Assembly (NCBI GenBank): GCA_021734995.1
Contig: JAIPHX010000001.1
Location: 52,590 to 116,589, forward strand
Direction: 5' to 3'
Source of the DNA: Minisyncoccota bacterium
GTDB lineage: Bacteria; Patescibacteriota; Minisyncoccia; Phycocordibacterales; UBA9973
Length of the DNA stretch: 64,000 nucleotides
In this document: piece after piece, positions 7,447 through 51,655 of the stretch
How the letters are laid out: every line of letters begins with the position of its first letter
Numbering within the stretch: the first letter of the stretch is position 1
Translations under genes and position numbers: made by a program
The notes under the pieces: generated by a model
The model's database searches: none
What the model was told of the DNA's origin: nothing
The model's input: the letters and a program-made list of their open reading frames with translations, nothing else

Positions 7447-7570
7447 TTAATGATTTGTCGGTGGTGGTGTTCTTCGCTCGTTGTTGTCATAGTACCCACC
7501 ATTGTTTACATGATTTGTTGGTGGAGGCATTCCATGCCCGTTGTTGTTTTCATAGTACCCACCGTTGTTC
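7447..7570. repeat. About 60-bp tandem duplication encoding the repeated cytoplasmic tail of the surface protein
   Basis: atttgt[c/t]ggtgg...catagtacccacc[a/g]ttgtt[t/c]acatg occurs twice in tandem. Confidence 0.5.
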
Positions 7571-10500
7571 ATGCGAACGTTCTGACGTTCATTTTCTTTA
7601 GACATTGCATACATTCTATTTTCAGCTGACTTTCCATACAACCATCTTACAAGGGCAATCAATAGTAGGATGATAAGGATGAATAGAAGCCATCCGATAA
7701 GAGTAGTTGGCCAAAAACCATATCCAAAGATAGAAGCAGCTCCAAGATTTATACTATTTTGTCCTTCTCTTATGATATTTCTAGAATAAGCGAAGACTTC
7801 TTCTTGGTTTTCATTATCAACAATAGTATATGAAAGGTTTGCAGTTATCACTATTGTTTTGTTTATTTCAGTAGTTTCTCTTACTCTAATTGTGACTCTG
7901 AAAGATCCTTCTTCTTGAGAGAATAGATCTCCAATATTCACAGTAAGGATATTGTCATCAGAATAGTAAGATCCGCGTGTACTTTCTAAGAATTCAAATT
8001 CTCCAGGAAGAGCAACACGAACCACCACACTTTTTAGATTTCTAGAAGATACGTTTTTGTAACGTACTACATAATCCAACACTTCACCTTGTCTAACTGA
8101 TTCTTCATCTCTGGATATATCAAGCCATACCAATGAAGCTCTTGAAGTACCAGAATATGTATTTGAAGAAGAATTACTTACTACAGTGGTATTGCTGTAT
8201 GTTGTGGTTTGACCTCCACCTGTGTAAGAAACAAAGTTACCAGTTCTAAACACTTTATAGTCTCCTCTGTAAGTCCCTGTAGAAGCAGTGACGACACCTC
8301 TGTAATAATATGTAGTATTTGGTGATAAACCACTTACTGAATCATTAAAGGCGATAGATTGCCCACTACCAATAGATTTACTTTGAGTTGTAGAACCTAG
8401 AGAATAACTTGTACCATATTCAAAGTATCCATTTAAGTTTTGAATATTTGAATAGTTGAAAGCGATAGCATTTAATCTTGCACTTGTTTGACCAACATTG
8501 GAAGCAACAATTGTAGATATTGTAATGAGATTATCACCATTGATGATTCCTCCACATGTTCCATAATAAGTACAATCATATACAGGAGGGGGAACATAAC
8601 CACCACCACCGCCACTTCCACCAGAAGATCTTGTTCTAAAGCTTAATATGTTTCCATACTTAGTGCCATTTTCAGAGTTTCTTCCTACTGCACGGAAATA
8701 GTAAGTAGTGCTGGAATTTAAGTTTGAAATACTTTCGCTAAAATTTCCAGAAACATCACTATCATCTTTCACTGTAGTTTTATTAAGAGAGTCTCTGTTT
8801 GTGCCATACTCAAACCAAGTAGTTGTGTCAATTCCAGCTGTATCTACATATCCATTTAAGACTGCAGTAGATCTTTCTATAGAGCTTGCCTCGTAAGTAG
8901 TGATATATAAATCACAATCATCATAAGTGGTGCCACATTCTTCTCCATCATTTAAAGTTCTAAAACTTCTTTCATCACCATACACCACTCTTCCATTAGT
9001 GTTTTGTGCAGCAGCTCGGAAGTAATATGTAGTGTCAGATTGTAAACCATTTAAAGTATAGCTATAATCAGTTCCGGTAGTAGATCCTATATATGTGCTA
9101 GAAGTTTCGTTGTAATAGTTTGAACCAGATTTTTTCCACTCAAACCATCCTTTTGTATCTGTCCCATAATTGGAGTTTACAAAACCTCTTAATGTCCCAG
9201 AGTCTGAATCAATATTTGCAGCAGAGTTTGTGGTTACTAAAGGATTTGTGTTTGTCGCTGAAGTAACTGTAATTGTAAGATCTTCTGAGTCTGTAGAACC
9301 GTTGTTTCCATAACAAGTGATTCTGAAAAGAGTTGTTGCGCTTATTGTTCCAACATAAGTAGATCCAGAAACAGGTTTTTCTATATTAGATGTCCAGTTT
9401 GTCCCACTTCCCAAAGAAGAGATACAGTAGTTTCCATTTTCAGCTGTCCAACTAATAGTAGAATATCCACTTCCATTTGTTAGAACAGAAGGAGAAGCTG
9501 TAAACGTTGTAATGTTTACTCCTTGAGGATTGGGGTCATTCATTGCTTCACAATATGTTCCGTTCCAAGTTGTAGCAGAGGCACAAGAAGCACTAGCTTC
9601 TTTTCTATCAAGAAGATCTGTTCCATTTCTTAATTCAAATAAATTTACCCCTTCATTGATATTTACTTCCAGCCCTCTAGTATTGGAAATTGTTTGAGCT
9701 AATTTTGTTTCTATCCCTTTATATTTTTTGAAAACCCCAGGATTAGAAGCATTGCTTGTACTCCATTTTAGAATTACTTCGCAGGCATTTTGGTCTTTTG
9801 GAATGATACAGCTATTTGTATCAATGTTTAATACACCAGAAGCGACTTGAGTGTTATAGTTTGCTTGGATTGTTCTTGAAGCTGTAGCAGTATCTCCATT
9901 TACCCCCATACATTTTATACTGTATGTAGTATTTGTAGATAAATGTCCTGTATCAAAAGGATTTGATCCGCTGTTTGTTCCAATGTTTAAGTTTCTCCAA
10001 GTAGTAGTTCCTTCTCTTGCTTCACAAGATATTGCATTGGAAGATGTCCATCTTATATATGTAGGAGCTTGAATGCTGTCTGAAGTAAGATTTACAGAGA
10101 CTAGAGGAGTGCTATTTATTGTACAGACACTTCCGTTCCAGTTTGAATTCCCTGCACAGCTTGCAGTGGCAGTTTTAGATGATAGGGTAGTATTGTTGTG
10201 CTTTAATGTAAAGGTAGTATTTGGATAAGAGACTTTAGTGCTTACATAATTACCACTTAAAGAGTTTGAAATATTTCCATATTTATCACTAGTAACACTT
10301 ATTCCTGAATTTGCATTTTGAGTACTCCAGTTGATAGAGATATTACAGAAGCTAGAGTTTGTAGGAATGATACAGCTTGATTGATTTAGAGTTAGATTAC
10401 CTGTAACCACTAATGTAGGAGGAGGGGTTGAATTTACTCTTACTGTAACGCTAGCTACTTGAGAAGCACTTCCAGGAGTATTTGTGTCTTCGCATCTAAT

Positions 10501-36808: not shown

Positions 36809-38509
36809 ATGAAGACAAACTGCCAGAACTGCAAAAAAGACTTCGATATTACAAAAAACGACTTGGGATTTTATGAAAAAATAAAGGTTCCGTCTCCGAC
36901 TTTTTGTCCTGAATGTAGAATGATACGAAGGATGGCTTGGAGAAACGAAAGGCATTTGCACAAAAATAAATGTGATATTTGTAAAGAAAATATAATCTCA
37001 ATATACAGCGAGGATTCCCCATATAAAGTTTTATGTGGCTCTTGTTTCCATGGAGATGCATGGAATCCTTTTGATTATGAGATGGAAATAGATTTTTCAA
37101 AACCTTTTTTACAACAGGTAAAAGAATTACAGTTAAAAGTGCCAAGACTATATTCTTTTGTTTTCCAAAATACAAATAGTGAATACACAAACGGGGCAGC
37201 TTTCAATAAAAATTGTTATCTTATTTTTGTGAGTGACTACGATGAAGATTGTGCATATTGTTACTCTACTACTAATTCCAAAAATTCCCTTGATCTTTTT
37301 AATTCTACTGAAAATGAATTGTGTTATGACTCTTCTTCTTGTGTGAAGTGTTTTGCTGTTTCTTTTTCTGAAGATTGTGCCTCTTCCCAAAATTTAATTT
37401 TTTGTAAAAATTGCAATAATTGCAGTGACTGTATTGGATGTGTAAATTTGAGAAATAAAAAGCATTGTTTGTTTAATGAGCAACTAACAGAAGAAGAATA
37501 CAAACAAAAAAAGAAAGAGTTAAATCTTGAAAATAGGGAAAGTTTGAAATCATTAGAAAAACAAGCGCGAGAAGTTTGGAGTAAATATCCATTGAAATAT
37601 ATACATGGTTTAAAAAACATAGATGTCATGGGGGATTACACAAATAATTCCAAAAACTCTAGTTTTGTTTTTGATTCAAACTCAGTGGAAGATTCTAAAT
37701 TTTTAAATTTTGGTAGTAAAATAAAAGATTCGCAAGATGCGTATGTTTTAGTGGATGGTTCAGAATTATGTAATGAGATTGTAAGTGGTATTACTTTAAG
37801 CAACGCGAAATGTAGCTATTGTGTTTGGGTTGGATTTAATATTTCATATTCTGATACTTGCGAAAATTCCAATAATTTATTTGGCTGTGTGGGAGTTAGA
37901 AAAGGAGAATATTGCATTTTGAATAAAAAGTATTCCAAAGAAGAATATGAGCAACTTGTAGAAAAAATTATAAAACATATGAATGATATGCCTTATGTAG
38001 ATGAAAAAGGGATTGTGTATAAATATGGTGAATTTTTCCCCATAGATTTAAGTCCTTTTTCTTATAACGAAACTATCGCTCAAGAATATTTTCCCTTAGA
38101 AGAAAAGGAAGCTTTAGAAAAAGGATATAGATGGATGAAGAAAAAAGAAAGAGATTATAAAATAGAGATAAAAAGCGAAGAAATTCCACAAGAGATAGAA
38201 GGTGTAGGGGAAGATATTGTAAATAAAGTAATAGAATGTGCTCACAAGGGGGATTGTAATCATCAATGCACGGAAGCTTTTAGAATAAGGAAATCCGATT
38301 TTGATTTTTATAAAAGATTAAAATTGCCATTGCCAGATTTATGTCCAAATTGTAGGCATACAAAAAGATTTAAAACTCATAATCCTCTTCAGTTTTGGGA
38401 AAGAGGGTGCATGAACAAAGGGTGTCAAAATAAATTTAAAACAACATATTCCCCAGATCGACCAGAAGTGGTGTATTGTGAATCTTGCTATCAGAAGGAG
38501 GTGTATTGA
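36809..38509 (+). CDS. Cysteine-rich protein family member 3 (566 aa)
   Basis: N-terminal CQNCKKDFDITKNDLGFYEKIKVPSPTFCPECRMIRRMAWRNER; central CKNCNNCSDCIGCVNL; YGEFFPIDLSPFSYNETIAQEYFP; C-terminal FYKRLKLPLPDLCPNCRHTKR...PEVVYCESCYQKEVY. Confidence 0.7.
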   Translation: MKTNCQNCKKDFDITKNDLGFYEKIKVPSPTFCPECRMIRRMAWRNERHLHKNKCDICKENIISIYSEDSPYKVLCGSCFHGDAWNPFDYEMEIDFSKPFLQQVKELQLKVPRLYSFVFQNTNSEYTNGAAFNKNCYLIFVSDYDEDCAYCYSTTNSKNSLDLFNSTENELCYDSSSCVKCFAVSFSEDCASSQNLIFCKNCNNCSDCIGCVNLRNKKHCLFNEQLTEEEYKQKKKELNLENRESLKSLEKQAREVWSKYPLKYIHGLKNIDVMGDYTNNSKNSSFVFDSNSVEDSKFLNFGSKIKDSQDAYVLVDGSELCNEIVSGITLSNAKCSYCVWVGFNISYSDTCENSNNLFGCVGVRKGEYCILNKKYSKEEYEQLVEKIIKHMNDMPYVDEKGIVYKYGEFFPIDLSPFSYNETIAQEYFPLEEKEALEKGYRWMKKKERDYKIEIKSEEIPQEIEGVGEDIVNKVIECAHKGDCNHQCTEAFRIRKSDFDFYKRLKLPLPDLCPNCRHTKRFKTHNPLQFWERGCMNKGCQNKFKTTYSPDRPEVVYCESCYQKEVY

Positions 38510-38619: not shown

Positions 38620-40281
38620 ATGGAGAAGACTTGTAAAAGATGCCTGCAGACTTTTGTAGTGGATAGCCTTGAGTTAAATTTGTCTCAAAAAATGAATATT
38701 CCTGTGACTCATTCATGCCCTGATTGTCGTTTTAAACTTAGAAACGTTTGGCGAAATGAGATGAACTTATATTCAGGAGTAAAGTGCGGGCTATGTGATA
38801 AGAGTATCATTTCTATGTATAACCCTAAACATGGGTATGTAATTTATTGTAACAGTTGTTATGAATCAGATAGTTGGGATAAAAAATCTTATTTTGTAAA
38901 TTATGATGAAAATCGTCCTTTTTTTGATCAGTTCCAAGAGCTTTTCAAAAAGACACCAAAAGCTTCTTTGTATATATCCAAAGCTTCAGGGATAAATCTA
39001 AATAGTGATTATGTAAATTATGCAGGAGGAATTAAAAATTGTTATTTTATTTTCAATGGAGGACCAGCAGAAGACTCTATGTATTCTAGAGGAGTGGTAT
39101 TTTCTAAAGATTCTTCTGATTCATATTTTGGGATGAATGTTGATAGGTGTTATGAATGTGTAAATATTTTTAATTCTTCAGGAGTATTCTGGGGGATAAA
39201 TGTTAATAATTGCTTGGATAGTATGTTTTTAATGGATTGCAGTGGATTGACTAATTGTTTTGGTTGTGTGAATTTAAGAATGAAAAGTTATTGTTGGTTT
39301 AATGAACAACTTTCCAGAAGTGAATACGAAGAAAGATTAAAGACTGTGCAAGGGAGTTATACAAAAATGCAGGCAGAATATTTAAAGTTTCAAGAGTTTG
39401 CATTAAAATTTCCAAATAGAGAAAACCACAATTTAAAAGTTCAAAATTGTCGGGGGGACTATCTGATGGAATGTAAAAATGTTGTTAATTCTTTTGAAAT
39501 TGCTTCTTCAGAAAATGTTATGTTTGCTTTTTCAGCTAAAAAACTAAAAGATTCTCTTGGGGTAGTTGGCTTTGGGTTTAATTCCGAGTCTCTTTTTGAT
39601 TGTGCTGCAGTAGGATATTCAAGCAATGTGATTGGTTCTGTTATTGTTGAAAATTCACAAAATATCTTGAATAGTTTTTCTTTGTATGGATGTAGTGATT
39701 GTATTGGTTGTGCTAGTTTAAAAAATGGTAAATTTTGTATTTTAAATAAAGAGTATAGAGAAGAAGAATATAATAAAATAAAAGAAAAGATTATCCAAGA
39801 ACTAAAAGAGAAAGAATTATATGGTTATATGATACCTTCAGAGATTTCTCCGTTTGGCTACAATGAATCTATTGTCATGGATAATGCTCCATTAAATGAA
39901 ACAGAGGTCTTGGCTTTTGGCTGTAGGTGGGAAGAAGACTTACAAAAAACAGAAGGGAAGGAAACTATTAAAACAGAAGATATCCCTGATAATATAGAGG
40001 AAGTAAATGAATCTTTTCTAAAAGAGATTTGTGTTTGCTTTGATTGTAAAAGAAATTACAAGCTAACCTCTCAGGAATTTTCTTTTTATAAAAAAATGAA
40101 GTTACCAATACCACGAAAGTGTTTTTATTGTCGACACAAAGATAGATTACAAAAAAGAGGTCCATATAAATTTTGGGACAGGGATTGTGCTAAGTGTGGT
40201 AAAAGTATCAGCACCAATTATGATTTAAATAGACCTGAGATTGTGTATTGTGAAAGTTGTTACCAAAAGGAGGTGTATTAG
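38620..40281 (+). CDS. Cysteine-rich protein family member 4 (553 aa)
   Basis: N-terminal CKRCLQTF...CPDCRFKLRNVWRNE; central DCSGLTNCFGCVNL and CSDCIGCASL; ISPFGYNESI; C-terminal CFDCKRNY...FYKKMKLPIPRKCFYCRHKDR...PEIVYCESCYQKEVY. Confidence 0.7.
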   Translation: MEKTCKRCLQTFVVDSLELNLSQKMNIPVTHSCPDCRFKLRNVWRNEMNLYSGVKCGLCDKSIISMYNPKHGYVIYCNSCYESDSWDKKSYFVNYDENRPFFDQFQELFKKTPKASLYISKASGINLNSDYVNYAGGIKNCYFIFNGGPAEDSMYSRGVVFSKDSSDSYFGMNVDRCYECVNIFNSSGVFWGINVNNCLDSMFLMDCSGLTNCFGCVNLRMKSYCWFNEQLSRSEYEERLKTVQGSYTKMQAEYLKFQEFALKFPNRENHNLKVQNCRGDYLMECKNVVNSFEIASSENVMFAFSAKKLKDSLGVVGFGFNSESLFDCAAVGYSSNVIGSVIVENSQNILNSFSLYGCSDCIGCASLKNGKFCILNKEYREEEYNKIKEKIIQELKEKELYGYMIPSEISPFGYNESIVMDNAPLNETEVLAFGCRWEEDLQKTEGKETIKTEDIPDNIEEVNESFLKEICVCFDCKRNYKLTSQEFSFYKKMKLPIPRKCFYCRHKDRLQKRGPYKFWDRDCAKCGKSISTNYDLNRPEIVYCESCYQKEVY

Positions 40282-40338: not shown

Positions 40339-41571
40339 TTGTCTATGAATTTAGAAAATCCAAAAAAATTACATCCTGATGGTGTTGAACAGCCTAAAAA
40401 AGTATTAATGGATCCTAAAAAAGATCCTATTGCTGGGAATATGGCAGTTGATGTTGCTGTTCAGAATATTGTTGTTGAACAGATGGGGGTTATTAGAGAT
40501 AAATTAGGGATGCCACCAATTACAGAAATACCACCATCTATACAAGACCAAGCAAATTTATTTTTGGACCAAATTAAAGATAAGGAATTTGATTATATGT
40601 TTCAAAACCCCAATGGAGAAGATACTCCTGAAGAGTATGTTACTACTTTAAAAAATGGTGTTGTTCAACAGTATTTGGATCAAAATAAAGATTTTCAAGA
40701 TTTAAAACCTTTATTGCAAAATGTATACAGGGGCAATTATGCTATTCAAGCATCTAATATTTTTTTTAATAACCCTTTAAATACTGAGAAGTTAAAAAAG
40801 ATTTTAGATTCTTTAATAAAAAATGAAGATAAAAAGTTTTCTGCTATAAAAAATGATGAGACTCTTAAATTATTAAAAAAAAGAGTGGCTAGCTCTAGTA
40901 GGGATTCAGCAGAAAAAGATGGAGTTGAATATTATTCCAAGACAAATCAAACGAGAGAGTTTTTTGCTGACGGTAGGAAAAGTGATTCATATTCTTATGT
41001 TTCAATGATGTTTGGTTTACTTAACAATTTTTCAACAACTGATTTGGGTAAGAAATATATCCATGAGAAAATTGATAATAAAACAATTTTTTTATTTGGT
41101 GGCGGTGATTCTGTTAGAGATTTATTAAATTCAGAAGAGTTTAAACCAAATAAAATACTTAATTTCGATCCTTTTTTAGAAAAAGAAGATCTCAATAAAA
41201 ATCAAAATGGTATTTATGAATCCTATCCAATATCAGCTTCAAATGAAAATATTAAAATAATGGTAGAAAAAGAAGTTATTCCGCAAGCTGATGAGGTGTG
41301 GGCTACATATTCGGTACCATTTTATTTAGATTCTGCCGAAGATATAAAAAAATTAATAAAAAATATGGCTTCAATTATACGAGAAGGAGGGAATGCTCGT
41401 ATTTCTCCGATAGCCGTTCAAAACAAAGATAAAGAAGGGGATACATTTGAAACACGAAAAAAAGCATTAATGGAGGCTATTCAAGATTTGTTAAATGACC
41501 CTAAATTTAATGTGGTTGTTTTCGGTGACACTATTAAGATTCATAAAATTAAAAAAGAAGTTTCTTCTTAA
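40339..41571 (+). CDS. Hypothetical protein (410 aa)
   Basis: Long ORF co-directional with the Cys-rich cluster; no recognisable motifs; hydrophilic. Confidence 0.45.
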   Translation: MSMNLENPKKLHPDGVEQPKKVLMDPKKDPIAGNMAVDVAVQNIVVEQMGVIRDKLGMPPITEIPPSIQDQANLFLDQIKDKEFDYMFQNPNGEDTPEEYVTTLKNGVVQQYLDQNKDFQDLKPLLQNVYRGNYAIQASNIFFNNPLNTEKLKKILDSLIKNEDKKFSAIKNDETLKLLKKRVASSSRDSAEKDGVEYYSKTNQTREFFADGRKSDSYSYVSMMFGLLNNFSTTDLGKKYIHEKIDNKTIFLFGGGDSVRDLLNSEEFKPNKILNFDPFLEKEDLNKNQNGIYESYPISASNENIKIMVEKEVIPQADEVWATYSVPFYLDSAEDIKKLIKNMASIIREGGNARISPIAVQNKDKEGDTFETRKKALMEAIQDLLNDPKFNVVVFGDTIKIHKIKKEVSS

Positions 41572-41650
41572 ATTATATTGAAGGCATGTTTGAGTAAGTA
41601 CTTTTGGTTTAGATTAACAATATTAGATTTTAATAGGTTTAGTGTAAAAT

Positions 41651-43144
41651 CTACCCCAAACTCTTCCTTAAAAGTGCAGCTTCTAGAATCTCTTTAGATG
41701 GGTTTTGATTTTTTTTGATTTTAGCTAGAATCTTTCCAGATAGTTTGGAGTGTTGTATTTCTTCTTTTGTTTTTGGTCCAAACTTGAATCCTGTATATCT
41801 TTCTAAAGATTCTATCTCTTCCAATAACCCTAAAAGTCCCAATTCTTTGATACTTTCTTTTCGTAAAAATCTTCCAGCTCTTTCTAGGTTTTCATTTAGA
41901 TTTTTGTAAAGATTTTTCACAACATCAATCTTGCCATTTTTTAAACATTCTTCTATTCCTTTACCTGTCCCTAAAAATTCTGGGGGGATACCAATAGAAT
42001 AACAGCTTGCAGTAAAACCGATAGCTCTAGGCAATTTGTTTTTCCCTACTTGTCTTGAATATCCAAAAAGACCGATATGTTGCATTCTTTCACGACGCTT
42101 TGGTATGTATTTGCTAACCCTTTGAATTAAAGGGACAAGTTCTTCCACTTTTCTTCTGTATGGTTTTTCAAAGAAGGAGATAACTTTTTTTATCTCTGGT
42201 AACATTTTGTCAGGGAAGATTTCTGTCTTAGTAGTTGCTATCTCTTTGATTATTTCTTGTACCGCTTTTTTAACCTTACTATTGTTGTGGTCATAGCGGA
42301 AAGAAGATTGAATCACTAAAGTTTTCATCCCAGCAAATTCTCTAACGAAGTCCAAGCTAGTGTCAGGGGTAAGTCCACCTCGGAAGGGTAGGGAACCAGG
42401 GGCAATGATAGGGAATGTTGGTATTTTTGTTTTTTTAGTGAATTTTGCATATTCAGATAATGCCCATTTGATTGCAAGAGTGGTGGGCACTATCCCTGAG
42501 TTCATACTAGGATCTGATCTTGCACAAAAAGGTCTTAGGTATTCAGGAGAATGTTTGAATTCTTTTTTATACATTTCTAAATATTGGTTCAAAATGTTAC
42601 CTGATTTTAGAAGGGTGTCCACTCTTTCAAAAAGTGGGATGATTTCAATAGGTTCTTCTTTGTGTTCTGTTTTACCAAAAGAAGTATTTACTACTTTTGC
42701 AAATTTCTTGAATCCTTTTTGTAATTTAAAGATTTCTCCCGCGGTCTCTGTCATAGGTAAAATAATTTCAAATACAGGATTATGAGAAATACTACCTGTG
42801 TCTTTTAATTCTCTGGCAGATAAGATAACCATCAATGCTCTTCCTAGTCGGTATCCTGACTCTACTCTTGGATTAGGAACCCTGAAGGTTAAGAAAAGCT
42901 CTTTGCCTAAAGGTTTTTTTTGGAAAAAGATAGCCTGCTCTGTGAGCAACCTTTCCACCACAGATTCATCTGCTAGTTTGCCTTCCCAATCCCACATCAT
43001 TTCTTCTGCTCCAACATCTTTAAACATCAAGATACATTCTTTTATTTCGTCATGGGTTTTGATTAGTGCTTCGCTGTGCCAGTATGGTTTGTGTGTGTGG
43101 TCAGGGTGTTGGGAAAACATTACAGCTGGTATTTTTCTAGGCAT
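41651..43144 (-). CDS. Archaeal-type phosphoenolpyruvate carboxylase (atPEPC, about 500 aa)
   Basis: N-terminal PRKIPAVMFSQHPDH matches the atPEPC PRxMxTQHPD motif. Its length is about 500 aa, against about 900 aa for bacterial-type PEPC. Confidence 0.65.
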   Translation of the reverse strand: MPRKIPAVMFSQHPDHTHKPYWHSEALIKTHDEIKECILMFKDVGAEEMMWDWEGKLADESVVERLLTEQAIFFQKKPLGKELFLTFRVPNPRVESGYRLGRALMVILSARELKDTGSISHNPVFEIILPMTETAGEIFKLQKGFKKFAKVVNTSFGKTEHKEEPIEIIPLFERVDTLLKSGNILNQYLEMYKKEFKHSPEYLRPFCARSDPSMNSGIVPTTLAIKWALSEYAKFTKKTKIPTFPIIAPGSLPFRGGLTPDTSLDFVREFAGMKTLVIQSSFRYDHNNSKVKKAVQEIIKEIATTKTEIFPDKMLPEIKKVISFFEKPYRRKVEELVPLIQRVSKYIPKRRERMQHIGLFGYSRQVGKNKLPRAIGFTASCYSIGIPPEFLGTGKGIEECLKNGKIDVVKNLYKNLNENLERAGRFLRKESIKELGLLGLLEEIESLERYTGFKFGPKTKEEIQHSKLSGKILAKIKKNQNPSKEILEAALLRKSLG

Positions 43145-43146
43145 CT

Positions 43147-44298
43147 TTATTTTGATTTTTTTATAAATTGATTAATTTTTCGCAATCCTTTTTCTAAAGT
43201 TTTTGTTTTTACTGCATAGCTTATTCGAATATATGAAGGGGAGTAGAAAGCTTCTCCAGGAACTACAGCCACTCCTTCTTCTTCTAGCAAAGCCTCTGCC
43301 CAAGCAGTGGAAGTTTTGTATTTTTTGCCGAGCAGGTTGCTAATATTTGGGAAGATATAAAAAGCTCCTTCGGGTTTTGATATCTTTAATTTTTTAATTT
43401 TATTAAGTGCATCAAAAGCAATGTTTCTATTTTTTTCAAATTCTTTTATCATTTTTCTTATTTCAGTATCATTTCCTCGAAGAGCTTCCAAAGCACCCAT
43501 TTGAGCGATTGAGTTTACTCCTGAAGTTATCTGACTAGCTAGACTTGTGATAGATTTGATTATTGATCTTGATCCACAGGCATATCCAATGCGCCAACCT
43601 GTCATTGCGTATGATTTTGAAAAGCCATTTATAATTAAGGTGTTTTCTTTTATTTTTTCACCCAAAGATGCAATAGAAAAATGTTTTTTTTCATAAATTA
43701 TTTTCTCATAGATTTCATCAGAGATAATAAAAATGTTTTTTTCTCTAGCCAACTTGCCAATCTTTATGATTTCTTGTTCGTCTATTGTTGCTCCTGTAGG
43801 ATTACTAGGAGTATTTAAAAGAATTATTTTTGTTTTAGAGGATATCTTTTTTTGGACATCTTTTGCTTTTAATTTAAATGGTGATTTTAATTCTACAAAC
43901 ACAACCTTTGCCCCTGCCATGTGGATTTGTTCTACATAAGTACTCCAAGTGGGGGAGGCGACAATCACTTCATCTCCTTTTTTGCATAATATTTGAAAAG
44001 CTAAATACAAAATATATTTTGTGCCTGCTCCAACAAAAATCTCTTCTTTGTCATATTTTATTTTATATTCTTCAAGGAATTTTTTTGAAATTGCTTCTCT
44101 GAGTTCGGTGATTCCTGCAGTAGGGGTGTAGTGGGTAAAATGTTTTTTAATTGCTTGGATAGAAGCGTTAGATATGTTTTTGGGAGTATTGAAATATGGT
44201 TCGCCAACTGTCAGATTTATGATTTCTCTGCCTTCTGCTTGTAGTTTTTTTGCTTTTTCATCTAGTGCCAATGTCGGTGATTCTTTAGGTATTTGCAT
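43147..44298 (-). CDS. PLP-dependent class I/II aminotransferase (aspartate/aromatic aminotransferase-like)
   Basis: PLP-Lys motif region FSKSYAMTGWRIGY, SPTWSTY, NTPSNPTG. Confidence 0.8.
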   Translation of the reverse strand: MQIPKESPTLALDEKAKKLQAEGREIINLTVGEPYFNTPKNISNASIQAIKKHFTHYTPTAGITELREAISKKFLEEYKIKYDKEEIFVGAGTKYILYLAFQILCKKGDEVIVASPTWSTYVEQIHMAGAKVVFVELKSPFKLKAKDVQKKISSKTKIILLNTPSNPTGATIDEQEIIKIGKLAREKNIFIISDEIYEKIIYEKKHFSIASLGEKIKENTLIINGFSKSYAMTGWRIGYACGSRSIIKSITSLASQITSGVNSIAQMGALEALRGNDTEIRKMIKEFEKNRNIAFDALNKIKKLKISKPEGAFYIFPNISNLLGKKYKTSTAWAEALLEEEGVAVVPGEAFYSPSYIRISYAVKTKTLEKGLRKINQFIKKSK

Positions 44299-44444
44299 GT
44301 TGTTTTCTTTGTTTTTTTGACCTTGTAGATTATATCATTTTATATAAAAAAAGTGATATAATGCGGGTATTATAAAGAAATTTAAGTTTGTTTTGGCTTT
44401 AGTAATAATTTAACCATTGTTCTGGTCAAGAAAATCTCAGAAAG

Positions 44445-45470
44445 ATGAAAACTAAAAATTTAAAACTAACTGCTGATAATAGAGAAGAAATTTTAAAAGA
44501 AGCTGGAGAAGTAATTCTTTCTGGGGGGTTGGTGGTTTTTCCCACTGAGACAGTGTATGGATTGGGAGCGAATGCATTAAATGAAAGTGCTGTTCAAAAA
44601 ATATTTTTAGCCAAAGGAAGACCATCTGATAATCCCATAATCCTGCATATAGGGGATGAGTCTTGGCTAGATGATCTGGTAGAAAGTGTTTCGGGAACAC
44701 AACAAAAACTAATAGATGCATTTTGGCCTGGGCCCCTTACTTTGATTTTTAAAAAAAAAGAAAATGTTTCTAGTATTGTGTCTGGTGGTCTGGATACTAT
44801 TGCAATCAGAATGCCAAAAAATTCTTTTGCTTTAGATTTATTAAAAAAAGTTGGAGTCCCCATAGGAGCACCTTCTGCTAATATTTCAGGCAAACCAAGT
44901 GCCACAGATGCAAATACTGCTTTTGCAGATTTGTCGGGGCAGGTCTCTTTGATTGTAGATGATGGTTTTTCAAATATCGGCCTAGAATCTACCGTAGTGA
45001 AGGAAGACAATGAAAACATTTTAATTTTACGAGCTGGTTCTGTTACAAAAGAAATGATTGAGGGTGTTGTAAGTAAGCCAGTTTTTTTTGCCACAAAAAA
45101 AGAAGATCTAAATTCTTCTCCAGGGACAAAATACCGACATTATGCCCCAAAGGCCAAGTTGCAAATTATAGCTGGAGATTCTGAGAATATTGGTGAAAAT
45201 CTACTAAAGATAGCAAATGAAAATTTAAAGAATGGGATTAGAGTTGGAATCTTAGGCACAGTAGAAAATATGAATATATATAAAGGGTTTGAGCCAAATG
45301 TTTTTTCTTTGGGTTCAAAAAATGATATGCTTCAAATATCAAGGAATGTGTACAGGGGATTAAGATTTTTTGACGATAAAGATGTAGATCTAATCCTAGT
45401 AGAAGCGTTTGAAGAGAAAGATTTAGGAGTGGCTGTTATGGATAGGTTTAAGAAAGCTTCTGCGGTGTAA
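44445..45470 (+). CDS. tsaC: L-threonylcarbamoyladenylate synthase (Sua5/TsaC family; YrdC domain plus Sua5 C-terminal domain)
   Basis: GGLVVFPTETVYGLGANA...AKGRPSDNPIILHI. Confidence 0.8.
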   Translation: MKTKNLKLTADNREEILKEAGEVILSGGLVVFPTETVYGLGANALNESAVQKIFLAKGRPSDNPIILHIGDESWLDDLVESVSGTQQKLIDAFWPGPLTLIFKKKENVSSIVSGGLDTIAIRMPKNSFALDLLKKVGVPIGAPSANISGKPSATDANTAFADLSGQVSLIVDDGFSNIGLESTVVKEDNENILILRAGSVTKEMIEGVVSKPVFFATKKEDLNSSPGTKYRHYAPKAKLQIIAGDSENIGENLLKIANENLKNGIRVGILGTVENMNIYKGFEPNVFSLGSKNDMLQISRNVYRGLRFFDDKDVDLILVEAFEEKDLGVAVMDRFKKASAV

Positions 45471-49185: not shown

Positions 49186-49680
49186 ATGTATAATTTATAT
49201 ATGAAAAGAGAGAGGCCTTCATGGGATGAATATTTTTTAGGAATGGTAGAGTATGTAGGCTCTAGGGCGACCTGTGATAGGGGTAGAAGTGGCTGTGTGA
49301 TTGTCAGAGATAAAAGGGTCATTTCTACTGGATATGTGGGCTCACCTCCAGGAGTTCCTCATTGTGATGATGTAGGGCATGAGATGCATACAGTTGTGAA
49401 TGAAGATGGTACTCAGTCTATGCATTGTATTAGGACTGCTCACGCTGAACAAAATGCTATCTCCCAAGCATCCCGTTTTGGAGTAGCATTAGAAGGAGCA
49501 ACCCTTTATTGTAAAATGACTCCTTGCTACTCTTGTGCCAAAAGTATAATTACTGCAGGTATCAAAAAAGTAGTGACTGCTAAAGACTATCATGCAGGAG
49601 AGAAAAGCAAAGCTATTTTAAAAGAAGCCGGAGTAGAGCTAAGTATATTGGGGGAAATGGAAGCTTATGATAAGCAATAA
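49186..49680 (+). CDS. dCMP deaminase (CMP/dCMP deaminase zinc-binding family)
   Basis: HAEQNAI and PCYSCAKSI zinc-ligand motifs. Confidence 0.8.
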   Translation: MYNLYMKRERPSWDEYFLGMVEYVGSRATCDRGRSGCVIVRDKRVISTGYVGSPPGVPHCDDVGHEMHTVVNEDGTQSMHCIRTAHAEQNAISQASRFGVALEGATLYCKMTPCYSCAKSIITAGIKKVVTAKDYHAGEKSKAILKEAGVELSILGEMEAYDKQ

Positions 49681-49773
49681 GAACAAACAAAATGAGAGAA
49701 TCACCAATAAACAATTTAGTACAGAAAAAAATGATTAAAATAAAAAAATTATTAATAAAAGTACTATACAAAA

Positions 49774-50103
49774 ATGATTGATTTAAAAGAATTACAAAAA
49801 GCAGTAAAGAGGAATAAAGAAGAAAAAGGATTTAATACTAATGATGTGTCTTTAGAATTTTGTCGAGCACACGAAGAGCTTTCTGAGGCTTTTTCAAAAT
49901 ACAATAAAGGTCAAGATGGAGTAGGGGAAGAGTTGGCAGATGTAGCAATCTTCCTTTTAGGAATGTCTGAAATTCTTGAAGTTGATTTAGAAAAAGAATT
50001 AGTTAGAAAAATAGAAATAAATAAAAATAGGAAATATACAAAAAGTATTGCCCCAAATGGGAAGCCAATATTTATTAGAGTTAAAACAGACGAAGATCCT
50101 TAA
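49774..50103 (+). CDS. MazG-like nucleoside triphosphate pyrophosphohydrolase (small all-alpha NTP-PPase)
   Basis: EELSEA ... EELADVAIFLLGM EExxE/D motifs. Confidence 0.55.
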   Translation: MIDLKELQKAVKRNKEEKGFNTNDVSLEFCRAHEELSEAFSKYNKGQDGVGEELADVAIFLLGMSEILEVDLEKELVRKIEINKNRKYTKSIAPNGKPIFIRVKTDEDP

Positions 50104-50180
50104 AGAGACCAAGGCAAGAAGGAGGTTTGTTTTAAAAAAATAAACTAAAAAGAAAAAGGGTGAACAAGAAAATATTTTAA

Positions 50181-50708
50181 TTACACTCTCCTGTAAACAT
50201 TAAAATACATATCGTAGGTATTTTCAGAATTTTTTGGAAAATATTCGTTTTTATCCAATTGCCACTCTTCTTTTTTAAATTCAGGGAAAAAAGTATCTGC
50301 CTCCATAGATGCTTCTACTTCTGTGAGATACAGTTTGTTGGCATAGGGTAGGGCGAGTTTGTAAATTTCTGCTCCACCAATGACAAATACTTCTTCTTCA
50401 GAAATATTTTTTAATACTTCTTCTAGCGAAGAGAAAATGGAAATATTTTTTCTGTCTTCTGTTTTTGTATGCTCTATGTTGTAGTGTGGATCTCTGGTAA
50501 TGATTATATTTTTTCTGTTTGGGAGTATTTTACCAGCTTTTCCATTTGTTTCTCCGAGAGATTCAAAAGTTTTTCGTCCCATAATAATAGTATGCCCCCT
50601 AGTAGTTTCTCTGAAATGTTTCATATCAGCAGGTAAATGCCAAAGAAGCTGATTGTTTAGACCAAGCTCTCTGTTTTTTCCTATGGCTGCAATAATTGAA
50701 ATATTCAT
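50181..50708 (-). CDS. folA: Dihydrofolate reductase
   Basis: ISIIAAIGKNRELGLNNQLLWHLPADMKHFRETTRGHTIIMGRKTFES. Confidence 0.85.
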   Translation of the reverse strand: MNISIIAAIGKNRELGLNNQLLWHLPADMKHFRETTRGHTIIMGRKTFESLGETNGKAGKILPNRKNIIITRDPHYNIEHTKTEDRKNISIFSSLEEVLKNISEEEVFVIGGAEIYKLALPYANKLYLTEVEASMEADTFFPEFKKEEWQLDKNEYFPKNSENTYDMYFNVYRRV

Positions 50709-50713
50709 ATTTT

Positions 50714-51655
50714 TTAAACTGCAATTGGTGCTTTTATCGCTTCGTGTGGATTGTAATCTGTCAGTTCAAAATCATCAATATTAAAATCTTCTAAATCTTT
50801 TTTTACAGGATTGATTTTCATTTTTGGGAGGGGGCGAATATCATTTCTCCTAGAGAGCTGTGTTTTTGCTTGTTCAATATGATTGAGATACAAATGAACA
50901 TCTCCACCAGTCCAGACAAATTCTCCAGGCTCTAGCCCTGTGATTTGTGCGACTATCATAGTGAGAAGGGAATATGAAGCAATATTAAAAGGTACTCCCA
51001 AAAATGTGTCACAGCTCCTTTGGTACAATTGGCAAGAAAGTTTTCCATTAGCAACATAAAATTGAAATAGACAATGACAAGGAGGTAGTCCTGCTTTTGC
51101 CATTTCATCTATGTATTCTACATTCCAAGCAGAGACAATCATTCTTCTACTATCAGGAGTGTTTTTTATTTGCTCAATAACTTTAGAAAGCTGATCTATG
51201 TGTCCGTTGTCTTTTGTCGGCCAAGAACGCCACTGATATCCGTAGATTGGTCCGAGATCGCCATATTCTTTAGCAAAACTATCCTCTTCTTTTATTTTCC
51301 TGACAAATTCTTTGATTCCAGTATTCCATTCTTCACTAGCCACAGCAGGGACTTTTAAATTATTTTTAATTAAATATGCTTTAAATGGCCACTCGTCCCA
51401 TATGTGGACATTGTTGTCTGCTAGATATTTTAGGTTGGTATCTCCACGCATAAACCACAAGAGTTCATGAATGATAGCTTTCATTGGAATTTTTTTTGTT
51501 GTCAAAAGAGGGAAGCCATTTCCTAAGTCAAATCGCATTTGATAACCCAAGACACTTTTGGTGCCTGTGCCTGTGCGATCTGTTTTCTCAGTGCCATTTT
51601 TTAGTAGATGTTCAAGCAATTCAAGATATGATTCATCTGGATGTTTATTTTGCAT
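50714..51655 (-). CDS. thyA: Thymidylate synthase (ThyA, folate-dependent)
   Basis: RTGTGT, LPPCH active-site Cys region ([13 protein letters not shown]), [10 protein letters not shown]. Confidence 0.9.

Follow-up and report, generated by a model that had tools for sequence, protein, structure and literature searches.

Archaeal-type phosphoenolpyruvate carboxylases (atPEPCs) are recognised by the conversion of phosphoenolpyruvate (PEP) and HCO3- to oxaloacetate and inorganic phosphate, by a homotetrameric assembly and by competitive inhibition by aspartate. Their size range is 55–60 kDa, and the first of them were characterised in Sulfolobus and Methanothermobacter (Ettema 2004 and Patel 2004, as cited in the review PMC8100219). 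Here we describe an atPEPC gene and the aminotransferase (AT) gene next to it in a 64,000-nucleotide stretch of a Minisyncoccota bacterium genome (GenBank assembly GCA_021734995.1, contig JAIPHX010000001.1, positions 52,590 to 116,589), hereafter the window. The host is a tiny-genome, groundwater-type bacterium of the Candidate Phyla Radiation (CPR, or Patescibacteria), a group usually described as without most amino-acid biosynthesis. We consider it likely, from sequence comparison and from gene order in relatives, that the two genes constitute a bicistronic operon on the minus strand, with the AT first and the PEPC second, whose products convert PEP from glycolysis into L-aspartate.

The closest described counterpart of the carboxylase is the atPEPC of Clostridium perfringens (Protein Data Bank entry 3ODM), a monomer of about 57 kDa with which the window PEPC shares its fold at a template modelling (TM) score of about 0.8. 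More distant are the bacterial- and plant-type PEPCs (bpPEPCs), such as the 883-aa Ppc of Escherichia coli (1JQN, 1FIY), which have the catalytic core, and by prediction the reaction, in common with the window PEPC (TM about 0.53). The AT is nearest to the class Ib aspartate aminotransferases (AspATs), represented by 1BJW from Thermus thermophilus, 6F77 (AatA) from Rhizobium meliloti and 5WMH from Arabidopsis.

An archaeal-type carboxylase in a CPR bacterium

Family, fold and residue evidence agree in placing the 497-aa protein in the atPEPC family, and we regard this membership, which rests on sequence and on a structural model, as established; we strongly infer that the protein has PEPC activity. 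It matches PF14010 (PEPcase_2) with 432 bits against a cutoff of 25 (E=2.8e-129, profile positions 1–493 of 493) and the NCBIfam equivalog TIGR02751 (PEPCase_arch) with 463.6 bits against a cutoff of 146.05 (positions 1–506 of 506). The initial annotation had called the open reading frame (ORF) an archaeal-type PEPC and let the call stand or fall with such profile searches, which returned these two families over their full length. The mass of the protein, 57.0 kDa, lies inside the atPEPC range (PMC8100219). At NCBI an identical (100%) protein, from a 166-kb contig of a metagenome-assembled genome (MAG), bears the name 'phosphoenolpyruvate carboxylase [Candidatus Pacebacteria bacterium]', and organisms under that name are now placed by the NCBI taxonomy in Minisyncoccota (CPR/Patescibacteria).

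The only solved sequence relative is 3ODM (3.7e-47). An AlphaFold2 model built with 20 homologues (predicted local distance difference test (pLDDT) 81.7, predicted TM score 0.87) matches the 3ODM chains in Foldseek with TM scores of 0.80–0.83 (E=2.5e-26), followed by the PEPCs of E. coli, maize and Arabidopsis at about 0.53; the list consists of PEPCs only.

Conservation was read from an alignment of 75 family representatives of 27–60% identity, 3ODM included. The window PEPC retains all columns with a conservation of 90% or more: in its N-terminal part Q12-H13-P14-D15, E54-G55-K56, R88, E173, R204 and S210-D211, and in its C-terminal part G250, F254-R255-G256, Q279, R351, R353, R364, R373, R493 and G497. 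H13, E173, D211, R255 and G497 are among these columns, so that the catalytic His and Arg residues singled out for checking by the initial annotation (H13, R255) are kept together with all other family-invariant positions. Read as motifs, the window PEPC shows the QHPD, EGK, TxR, PLxE, RSD and FRG of the family and its C-terminal Gly.

The relation to the larger enzymes is remote. At 497 aa and 57.0 kDa against 883 aa, the protein is about half the size of E. coli Ppc, as had been noted at the outset for bacterial and plant PEPCs in general, and it is without the regions that bear the allosteric sites of bpPEPC (PMC8100219). An hhalign comparison with full-length E. coli Ppc gave a weak match (probability 6.6%, E=0.0055) that tentatively pairs E173 with E506, D211 with D543, R255 with R587 and R373 with R699. 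We take these E. coli positions to be the metal ligands and the catalytic or PEP-binding arginines of bpPEPC. CPR PEPCs, aligned and compared by hhalign with E. coli Ppc over its first 450 residues, where His138 and Arg396 were sought, gave no meaningful match; in this region homology to bpPEPC including the His138 motif is undetectable by that method. The N-terminal His motif of the window PEPC is presumably the equivalent of E. coli H138.

The window PEPC also differs from its structural counterpart. It is only about 25–30% identical to 3ODM and belongs to a separate, large CPR clade marked by the motifs [MK]WDWEGK, F[LI]TFR[VLI]PNP and RRERxQHxGxFGYSR. In addition, 3ODM carries about 25 extra residues after its residue 381, right after the RRERMQHIGLFGYSR segment, that the window PEPC is without. 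This segment, residues 350–363 of the window PEPC (about 42056–42097, minus strand), varies little or not at all within the CPR clade; it is also the least confident part of the AlphaFold2 model (pLDDT below 50), and it may be a mobile active-site loop.

A class Ib aminotransferase next to the carboxylase

By sequence the neighbouring gene encodes a class I, subgroup Ib, AspAT-like pyridoxal phosphate (PLP) enzyme, whose substrate is predicted from three things: its nearest relatives of solved structure, the conserved K94 and the conserved linkage to PEPC. The protein matches PF00155 with 261.9 bits (E=1.3e-77). Its nearest solved structures in phmmer align over the whole length at 6e-87 to 5e-78, with 6F77 first at 6e-87, then 5WMH, 1J32, 1BJW and 1O4S, all of them class Ib AspATs or aspartate/prephenate ATs. 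The class I assignment of the initial annotation, including its aspartate kind, is thus borne out by NCBIfam, by the solved relatives and by the conserved residues.

Residue conservation was assessed over 23 PEPC-linked orthologues, the window AT among them. K94, W118, N166, D194, Y197, S227-K228 and R236 are invariant (23/23), and R358 is kept in 22 of the 23; K228, D194, Y197, N166, R236 and R358 are shared with the class Ib AspATs named above, as is the Ib-specific Lys, present in the window AT as K94. In the phmmer alignment K94 pairs with K169 of the Arabidopsis PAT (5WMH). In class Ib enzymes a Lys replaces Arg292 of the class Ia enzymes in binding the distal carboxylate, as known from the literature on the Thermus AspAT. 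We take K94 to be this lysine (K109 in pig numbering), which holds Asp or Glu by its distal carboxylate, R358 to be the arginine that binds the alpha-carboxylate (pig R386) and K228 to be the lysine that forms the Schiff base with PLP.

One residue sets the window AT apart from the described class Ib enzymes, which usually have Asp or Asn in the motif GEP[D/N]F. Residue 35 of the window AT is Tyr (GEPYF); among the other 22 PEPC-linked orthologues, 18 have Asp there and 4 have Asn.

Layout of the gene pair

The features of the pair and its flanks are as follows.

43147..44298, minus strand: AT gene, 383 aa, 43.0 kDa, promoter-proximal
43145..43146, minus strand: 2-nt spacer from the AT stop TAA to the PEPC start ATG, by sequence reading
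41651..43144, minus strand: PEPC gene, 497 aa, 57.0 kDa, distal, start MPRKIPAVMFSQHPDH
44299..44444, minus strand: divergent intergenic region of 146 bp between the AT gene and tsaC/sua5 (44445..45470, plus strand), presumed promoter region of the AT–PEPC operon
41572..41650: convergent intergenic region of 79 bp that separates the PEPC stop from that of a 410-aa hypothetical ORF (40339..41571, plus strand), presumed operon end

On the minus strand the junction sequence is ...TCAAAATAA-AG-ATGCCTAGA, and the ORF listing agrees with it on two adjacent same-strand ORFs with a 2-bp spacer, as first reported. The description of the PEPC as followed by the AT holds in window coordinates; in transcription the order is reversed, since both ORFs lie on the minus strand, with the AT upstream and the PEPC downstream. 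Chance ORFs are unlikely given the profile matches to PF14010 (E=2.8e-129, 493/493 profile positions) and PF00155 (E=1.3e-77). The 2-nt spacer implies co-transcription, and translation is probably coupled, both being suggested by the spacer here together with the 4-bp overlaps found in relatives.

By sequence reading, the 146-bp divergent region holds an extended -10-like element, TGATATAAT, at 44337->44329, 30 nt ahead of the AT start ATG, and a TATAAT at 44374->44369. A generic two-hexamer promoter scan found no match in 44299..44444, and a scan of 41572..41650 found no terminator-like hairpin.

Linkage is frequent and specific to the CPR clade

Gene order was compared across 80 species loci of related PEPCs, 71 of which extend 1.2 kb or more upstream. 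An orthologous AT (49–57% identity) lies directly upstream of PEPC on the same strand at 24 of the 80. Among the 22 such pairs with called ORFs the gap is -4, an ATGA-type overlap, in 10 and at most 14 nt in 18; the published genome of Woesebacteria RIFCSPLOWO2_01_FULL_39_23 has the identical AT-then-PEPC arrangement. In the CPR PEPC tree this type-A linkage is scattered over the two main branches and reaches 9/12 informative loci in the window's own sub-branch.

A further 11 of the 80 loci, from other Microgenomates, have a non-orthologous class I AT (25–30% identity) within 2.5 kb of PEPC. Seven of these (L017, L020, L027, L029, L038, L039 and L055) carry it immediately downstream of PEPC on the same strand; the other four are L051, L061, L071 and L076. 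These ATs belong to the NF005744/PRK07568 subfamily (514–561 bits against a cutoff of 389) and have Ser at the K94 position. To judge by sequence, this second subfamily looks like a non-orthologous replacement that keeps the pairing.

When three genes on each side of PEPC were clustered over the 80 related loci, the AT was the sole neighbour family present in more than five. The other genes around the window pair, tsaC/sua5, murB and two hypothetical ORFs, were tested as PEPC neighbours in the same loci, and none was conserved. Pairwise distances of AT and PEPC are correlated (Mantel r=0.765, 0/5000 permutations), as expected of a pair inherited together.

Other atPEPC clades differ in this respect. 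Gene order with an AT directly before PEPC, frequent in the CPR clade, occurs at 0/80 loci elsewhere, and no class I AT lies within 5 kb of PEPC at any of these 80 metagenomic loci, which form 38 clusters at 90% identity. With 35/80 CPR-clade loci set against 0/38 other-clade clusters (Fisher p=6e-8), the AT–PEPC linkage is real and frequent, and it is CPR-specific. At some of the non-CPR loci (L138 and related), GatA- and GatB-like genes stand just upstream of PEPC, by reading of the printed sequences, and other non-CPR loci have homocitrate- or isopropylmalate-synthase-like and aconitase-family neighbours.

A probable route from PEP to aspartate

In the proposed operon the atPEPC, with a divalent metal, would irreversibly convert PEP and bicarbonate to oxaloacetate and phosphate. 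The class Ib AT would then convert oxaloacetate to L-aspartate, with L-glutamate as the likely amino donor and 2-oxoglutarate released, and the coupling of the cistrons would provide matched amounts of the two enzymes. The aspartate would probably be drawn off into protein and nucleotide synthesis. A PEP–oxaloacetate–aspartate module of this kind had been proposed from the adjacency in the window; the AT as sole conserved neighbour over 80 loci and the co-varying distances (r=0.77) now speak for it. The window also encodes a PyrF–PyrE fusion (13177–14679, plus strand; TIGR02127 at 220 bits, cutoff 110.6, the PyrE part below cutoff), a divergent dihydroorotate dehydrogenase-like protein (58171–59235, plus strand; below all cutoffs) and, at 49186–51655, dCMP deaminase, DHFR and ThyA. 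Aspartate supply to pyrimidine synthesis is plausible.

Several results weigh against this aspartate operon. The AT fails every NCBIfam AspAT equivalog cutoff: its best match, NF041091 (asp_aminotase_Arch), scores 395 bits, below the 550 cutoff, and NF004769 and NF006229 score 342 and 294 bits against cutoffs of 617 and 624. Because of these scores, the identical (100%) NCBI protein is named only 'pyridoxal phosphate-dependent aminotransferase [Candidatus Pacebacteria bacterium]'. Enzymes of class Ib are also able to accept prephenate or further keto acids. An adjacent AT is missing from about half of the related PEPC loci, which makes the linkage frequent, not obligatory. The 64 kb of the window showed no pyrB, pyrC, asnB or purA, genes whose products consume aspartate, and the organism in which 2-oxoglutarate would be released is probably without a tricarboxylic acid (TCA) cycle. 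Promoter-scan matches across the region are at chance level (10 against 9.5 expected), as are terminator predictions, and because of this the region 44299..44444 is no more than the presumed promoter.

Some of these results would fit a different use of the enzymes, in which PEPC mainly feeds other oxaloacetate routes, such as malate/fumarate redox balancing or a partial reductive TCA cycle. The AT would then act on another substrate (alanine, an aromatic compound or prephenate, or one from methionine salvage), and its adjacency to PEPC would be only loosely functional. A partial reductive TCA cycle has been suggested for CPR MAGs (PMC12114108), and the CPR literature places PEPC under CO2 fixation and the reductive TCA cycle or treats it as a source of oxaloacetate; the scores of the AT below the AspAT cutoffs, the bifunctional aspartate/prephenate ATs among its Ib relatives (5WMH) and the many loci that lack the AT point the same way. 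Yet the AT is the sole conserved neighbour of PEPC, two non-orthologous class I AT subfamilies each adjoin it, 4-bp overlaps are frequent and the distances of the two proteins co-vary. Moreover, the dicarboxylate-binding Lys of class Ib is invariant in the linked ATs, and neither the conserved neighbours nor the window include a TCA gene such as one for malate dehydrogenase or fumarase. On balance we judge these other routes unlikely as the main outlet of the enzyme, and retain aspartate synthesis as the probable function.

The enzymes and their chemistry are standard, public databases already carry annotations of both proteins and the metabolism is ordinary. The new element is modest: the AT-then-atPEPC order as a conserved, CPR-specific gene pair. 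We found no description of this pair in the searchable open literature on PEPC and AspAT in CPR, in which PEPC is mentioned only in passing. A conserved PEP-to-aspartate operon would be among the few anabolic routes that CPR bacteria retain, and would tie glycolytic fermentation to the uptake of CO2 or bicarbonate and to nucleotide supply, which would be useful for metabolic models and for the design of cultivation media.

A stronger claim can be offered only tentatively, and we lean against it: that AT–atPEPC is a lineage-specific, co-inherited and translationally coupled unit of Microgenomates/Patescibacteria that gives host-dependent auxotrophs an autonomous, bicarbonate-dependent synthesis of aspartate, possibly with a physical handover of oxaloacetate. 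If it were true, the aspartate would feed asparagine, protein, pyrimidine and purine synthesis, and labile oxaloacetate would be passed between the enzymes. That two AT subfamilies adjoin one PEPC clade, and none adjoins PEPC in the other clades sampled, would argue for selection on the pairing itself.

Distribution and origin

The initial annotation described atPEPC as mainly archaeal with sporadic bacterial occurrences, a picture that the present data overturn. At least 570 genomes, counted as one genome per GTDB species, encode a relative with [MK]WDWEGK or F[LI]TFR[VLI]PNP, and among the best 80 matches the informative labels are nearly all of Microgenomates-type CPR (Levy-, Roizman-, Davies-, Gottesman- and Woesebacteria, and Paceibacterota). 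For the window PEPC as for the AT, the 120 top-ranking homologues are CPR-like and 46–62% identical; those of the PEPC that carry names are Daviesbacteria, Gottesmanbacteria, Woesebacteria and 'Patescibacteria group', and all close relatives of both proteins are CPR. The whole atPEPC family comprises only 494 clusters at 50% identity, from an exhaustive HMMER search of 1.84 billion representatives. A large share of known atPEPC diversity now lies in CPR bacteria, which corrects the 'mainly archaeal' picture of textbooks.

CPR-type PEPC genes also occur on contigs titled as unrelated phyla: Exilispira sp. (L012, a 5-kb contig), Weeksellaceae (L035), Sulfotelmatobacter (L047), Limnocylindrales (L050), Lysobacterales (L072) and many third-party annotation (TPA) MAGs of 'uncultured Gammaproteobacteria'. 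L012 and L047 have a type-A AT directly upstream of the CPR-type PEPC. Such titles most likely reflect mis-binning or placeholder labels rather than real transfers.

The name of the family, 'archaeal-type', invites the explanation that an archaeon or another phylum was the recent source of PEPC, with or without the AT, and lateral acquisition had indeed been raised as a possibility. An Odinarchaeia sequence and the Clostridium perfringens enzyme share the broader family, so inter-domain transfer must have taken place at some time in its history. A recent event is a different matter, since composition, core-gene context and CPR relatives all leave it unsupported. The two genes have GC contents of 0.359 and 0.323 and GC3 values of 0.291 and 0.229, within 1 standard deviation of 54 window genes; their codon-usage distances to the same genes give |z|<1, and the GC profile of the window shows no step. 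The comparison of GC and codon usage that the initial annotation proposed therefore finds both genes typical of the window.

The genomic context is equally ordinary. Core genes (tsaC, murB, nusG, secE, L11) neighbour the pair, others in the window being uvrB/A/C, ruvA, ruvX, fpg and L19 and an S12-S7-EF-G-EF-Tu-S10-L3-L4 cluster, and the window gene annotation shows no mobile-element gene, integrase or transposase, near the pair. In a neighbour-joining tree, the phylogeny likewise proposed at the outset, the window PEPC nests among sequences labelled Davies-, Gottesman-, Woese- and Patescibacteria, while 3ODM and the Odinarchaeia protein (P0188) fall in a distant clade at about 30% identity; the tree is sparsely labelled, cluster labelling having given a single name, that of P0188, for ten representatives, and many of its deep nodes have low bootstrap. 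Recent horizontal transfer is thus rejected on composition, genomic context and relatives, and we regard it as very unlikely. By these sequence comparisons the Microgenomates/Patescibacteria atPEPC clade has long possessed the pair and inherited its two genes together, and an ancient inter-domain transfer may lie at the base of that clade.

That two unrelated housekeeping genes merely fell together by chance in a compact genome is barely conceivable: CPR genomes are gene-dense and short intergenic gaps are common in them, but the order and strand of the pair recur in 24 independent species-level loci where the other neighbours differ, and the contrast between 35/80 loci here and none of 80 (0/38 clusters) in the other atPEPC clades (p=6e-8) effectively refutes it.

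Other features of the window

Neither Pfam nor NCBIfam gives a match for the 410-aa ORF at 40339–41571 (plus strand), which converges on the PEPC gene and is not a conserved PEPC neighbour among relatives. Before it in the window lie two tandem paralogous Cys-rich ORFs (36809–38509 and 38620–40281, both plus strand) of 566 and 553 aa that are 33% identical over their full length. Their cysteines number 36 and 33, CxxC pairs stand at either end of each, and the C-terminus ...VYCESCYQKEVY is common to the two; Pfam and NCBIfam gave no match for either. A 1313-aa ORF (7447–11388, minus strand) combines a purple-acid-phosphatase N-terminal-like domain with DUF11 domains and is probably a large surface protein.

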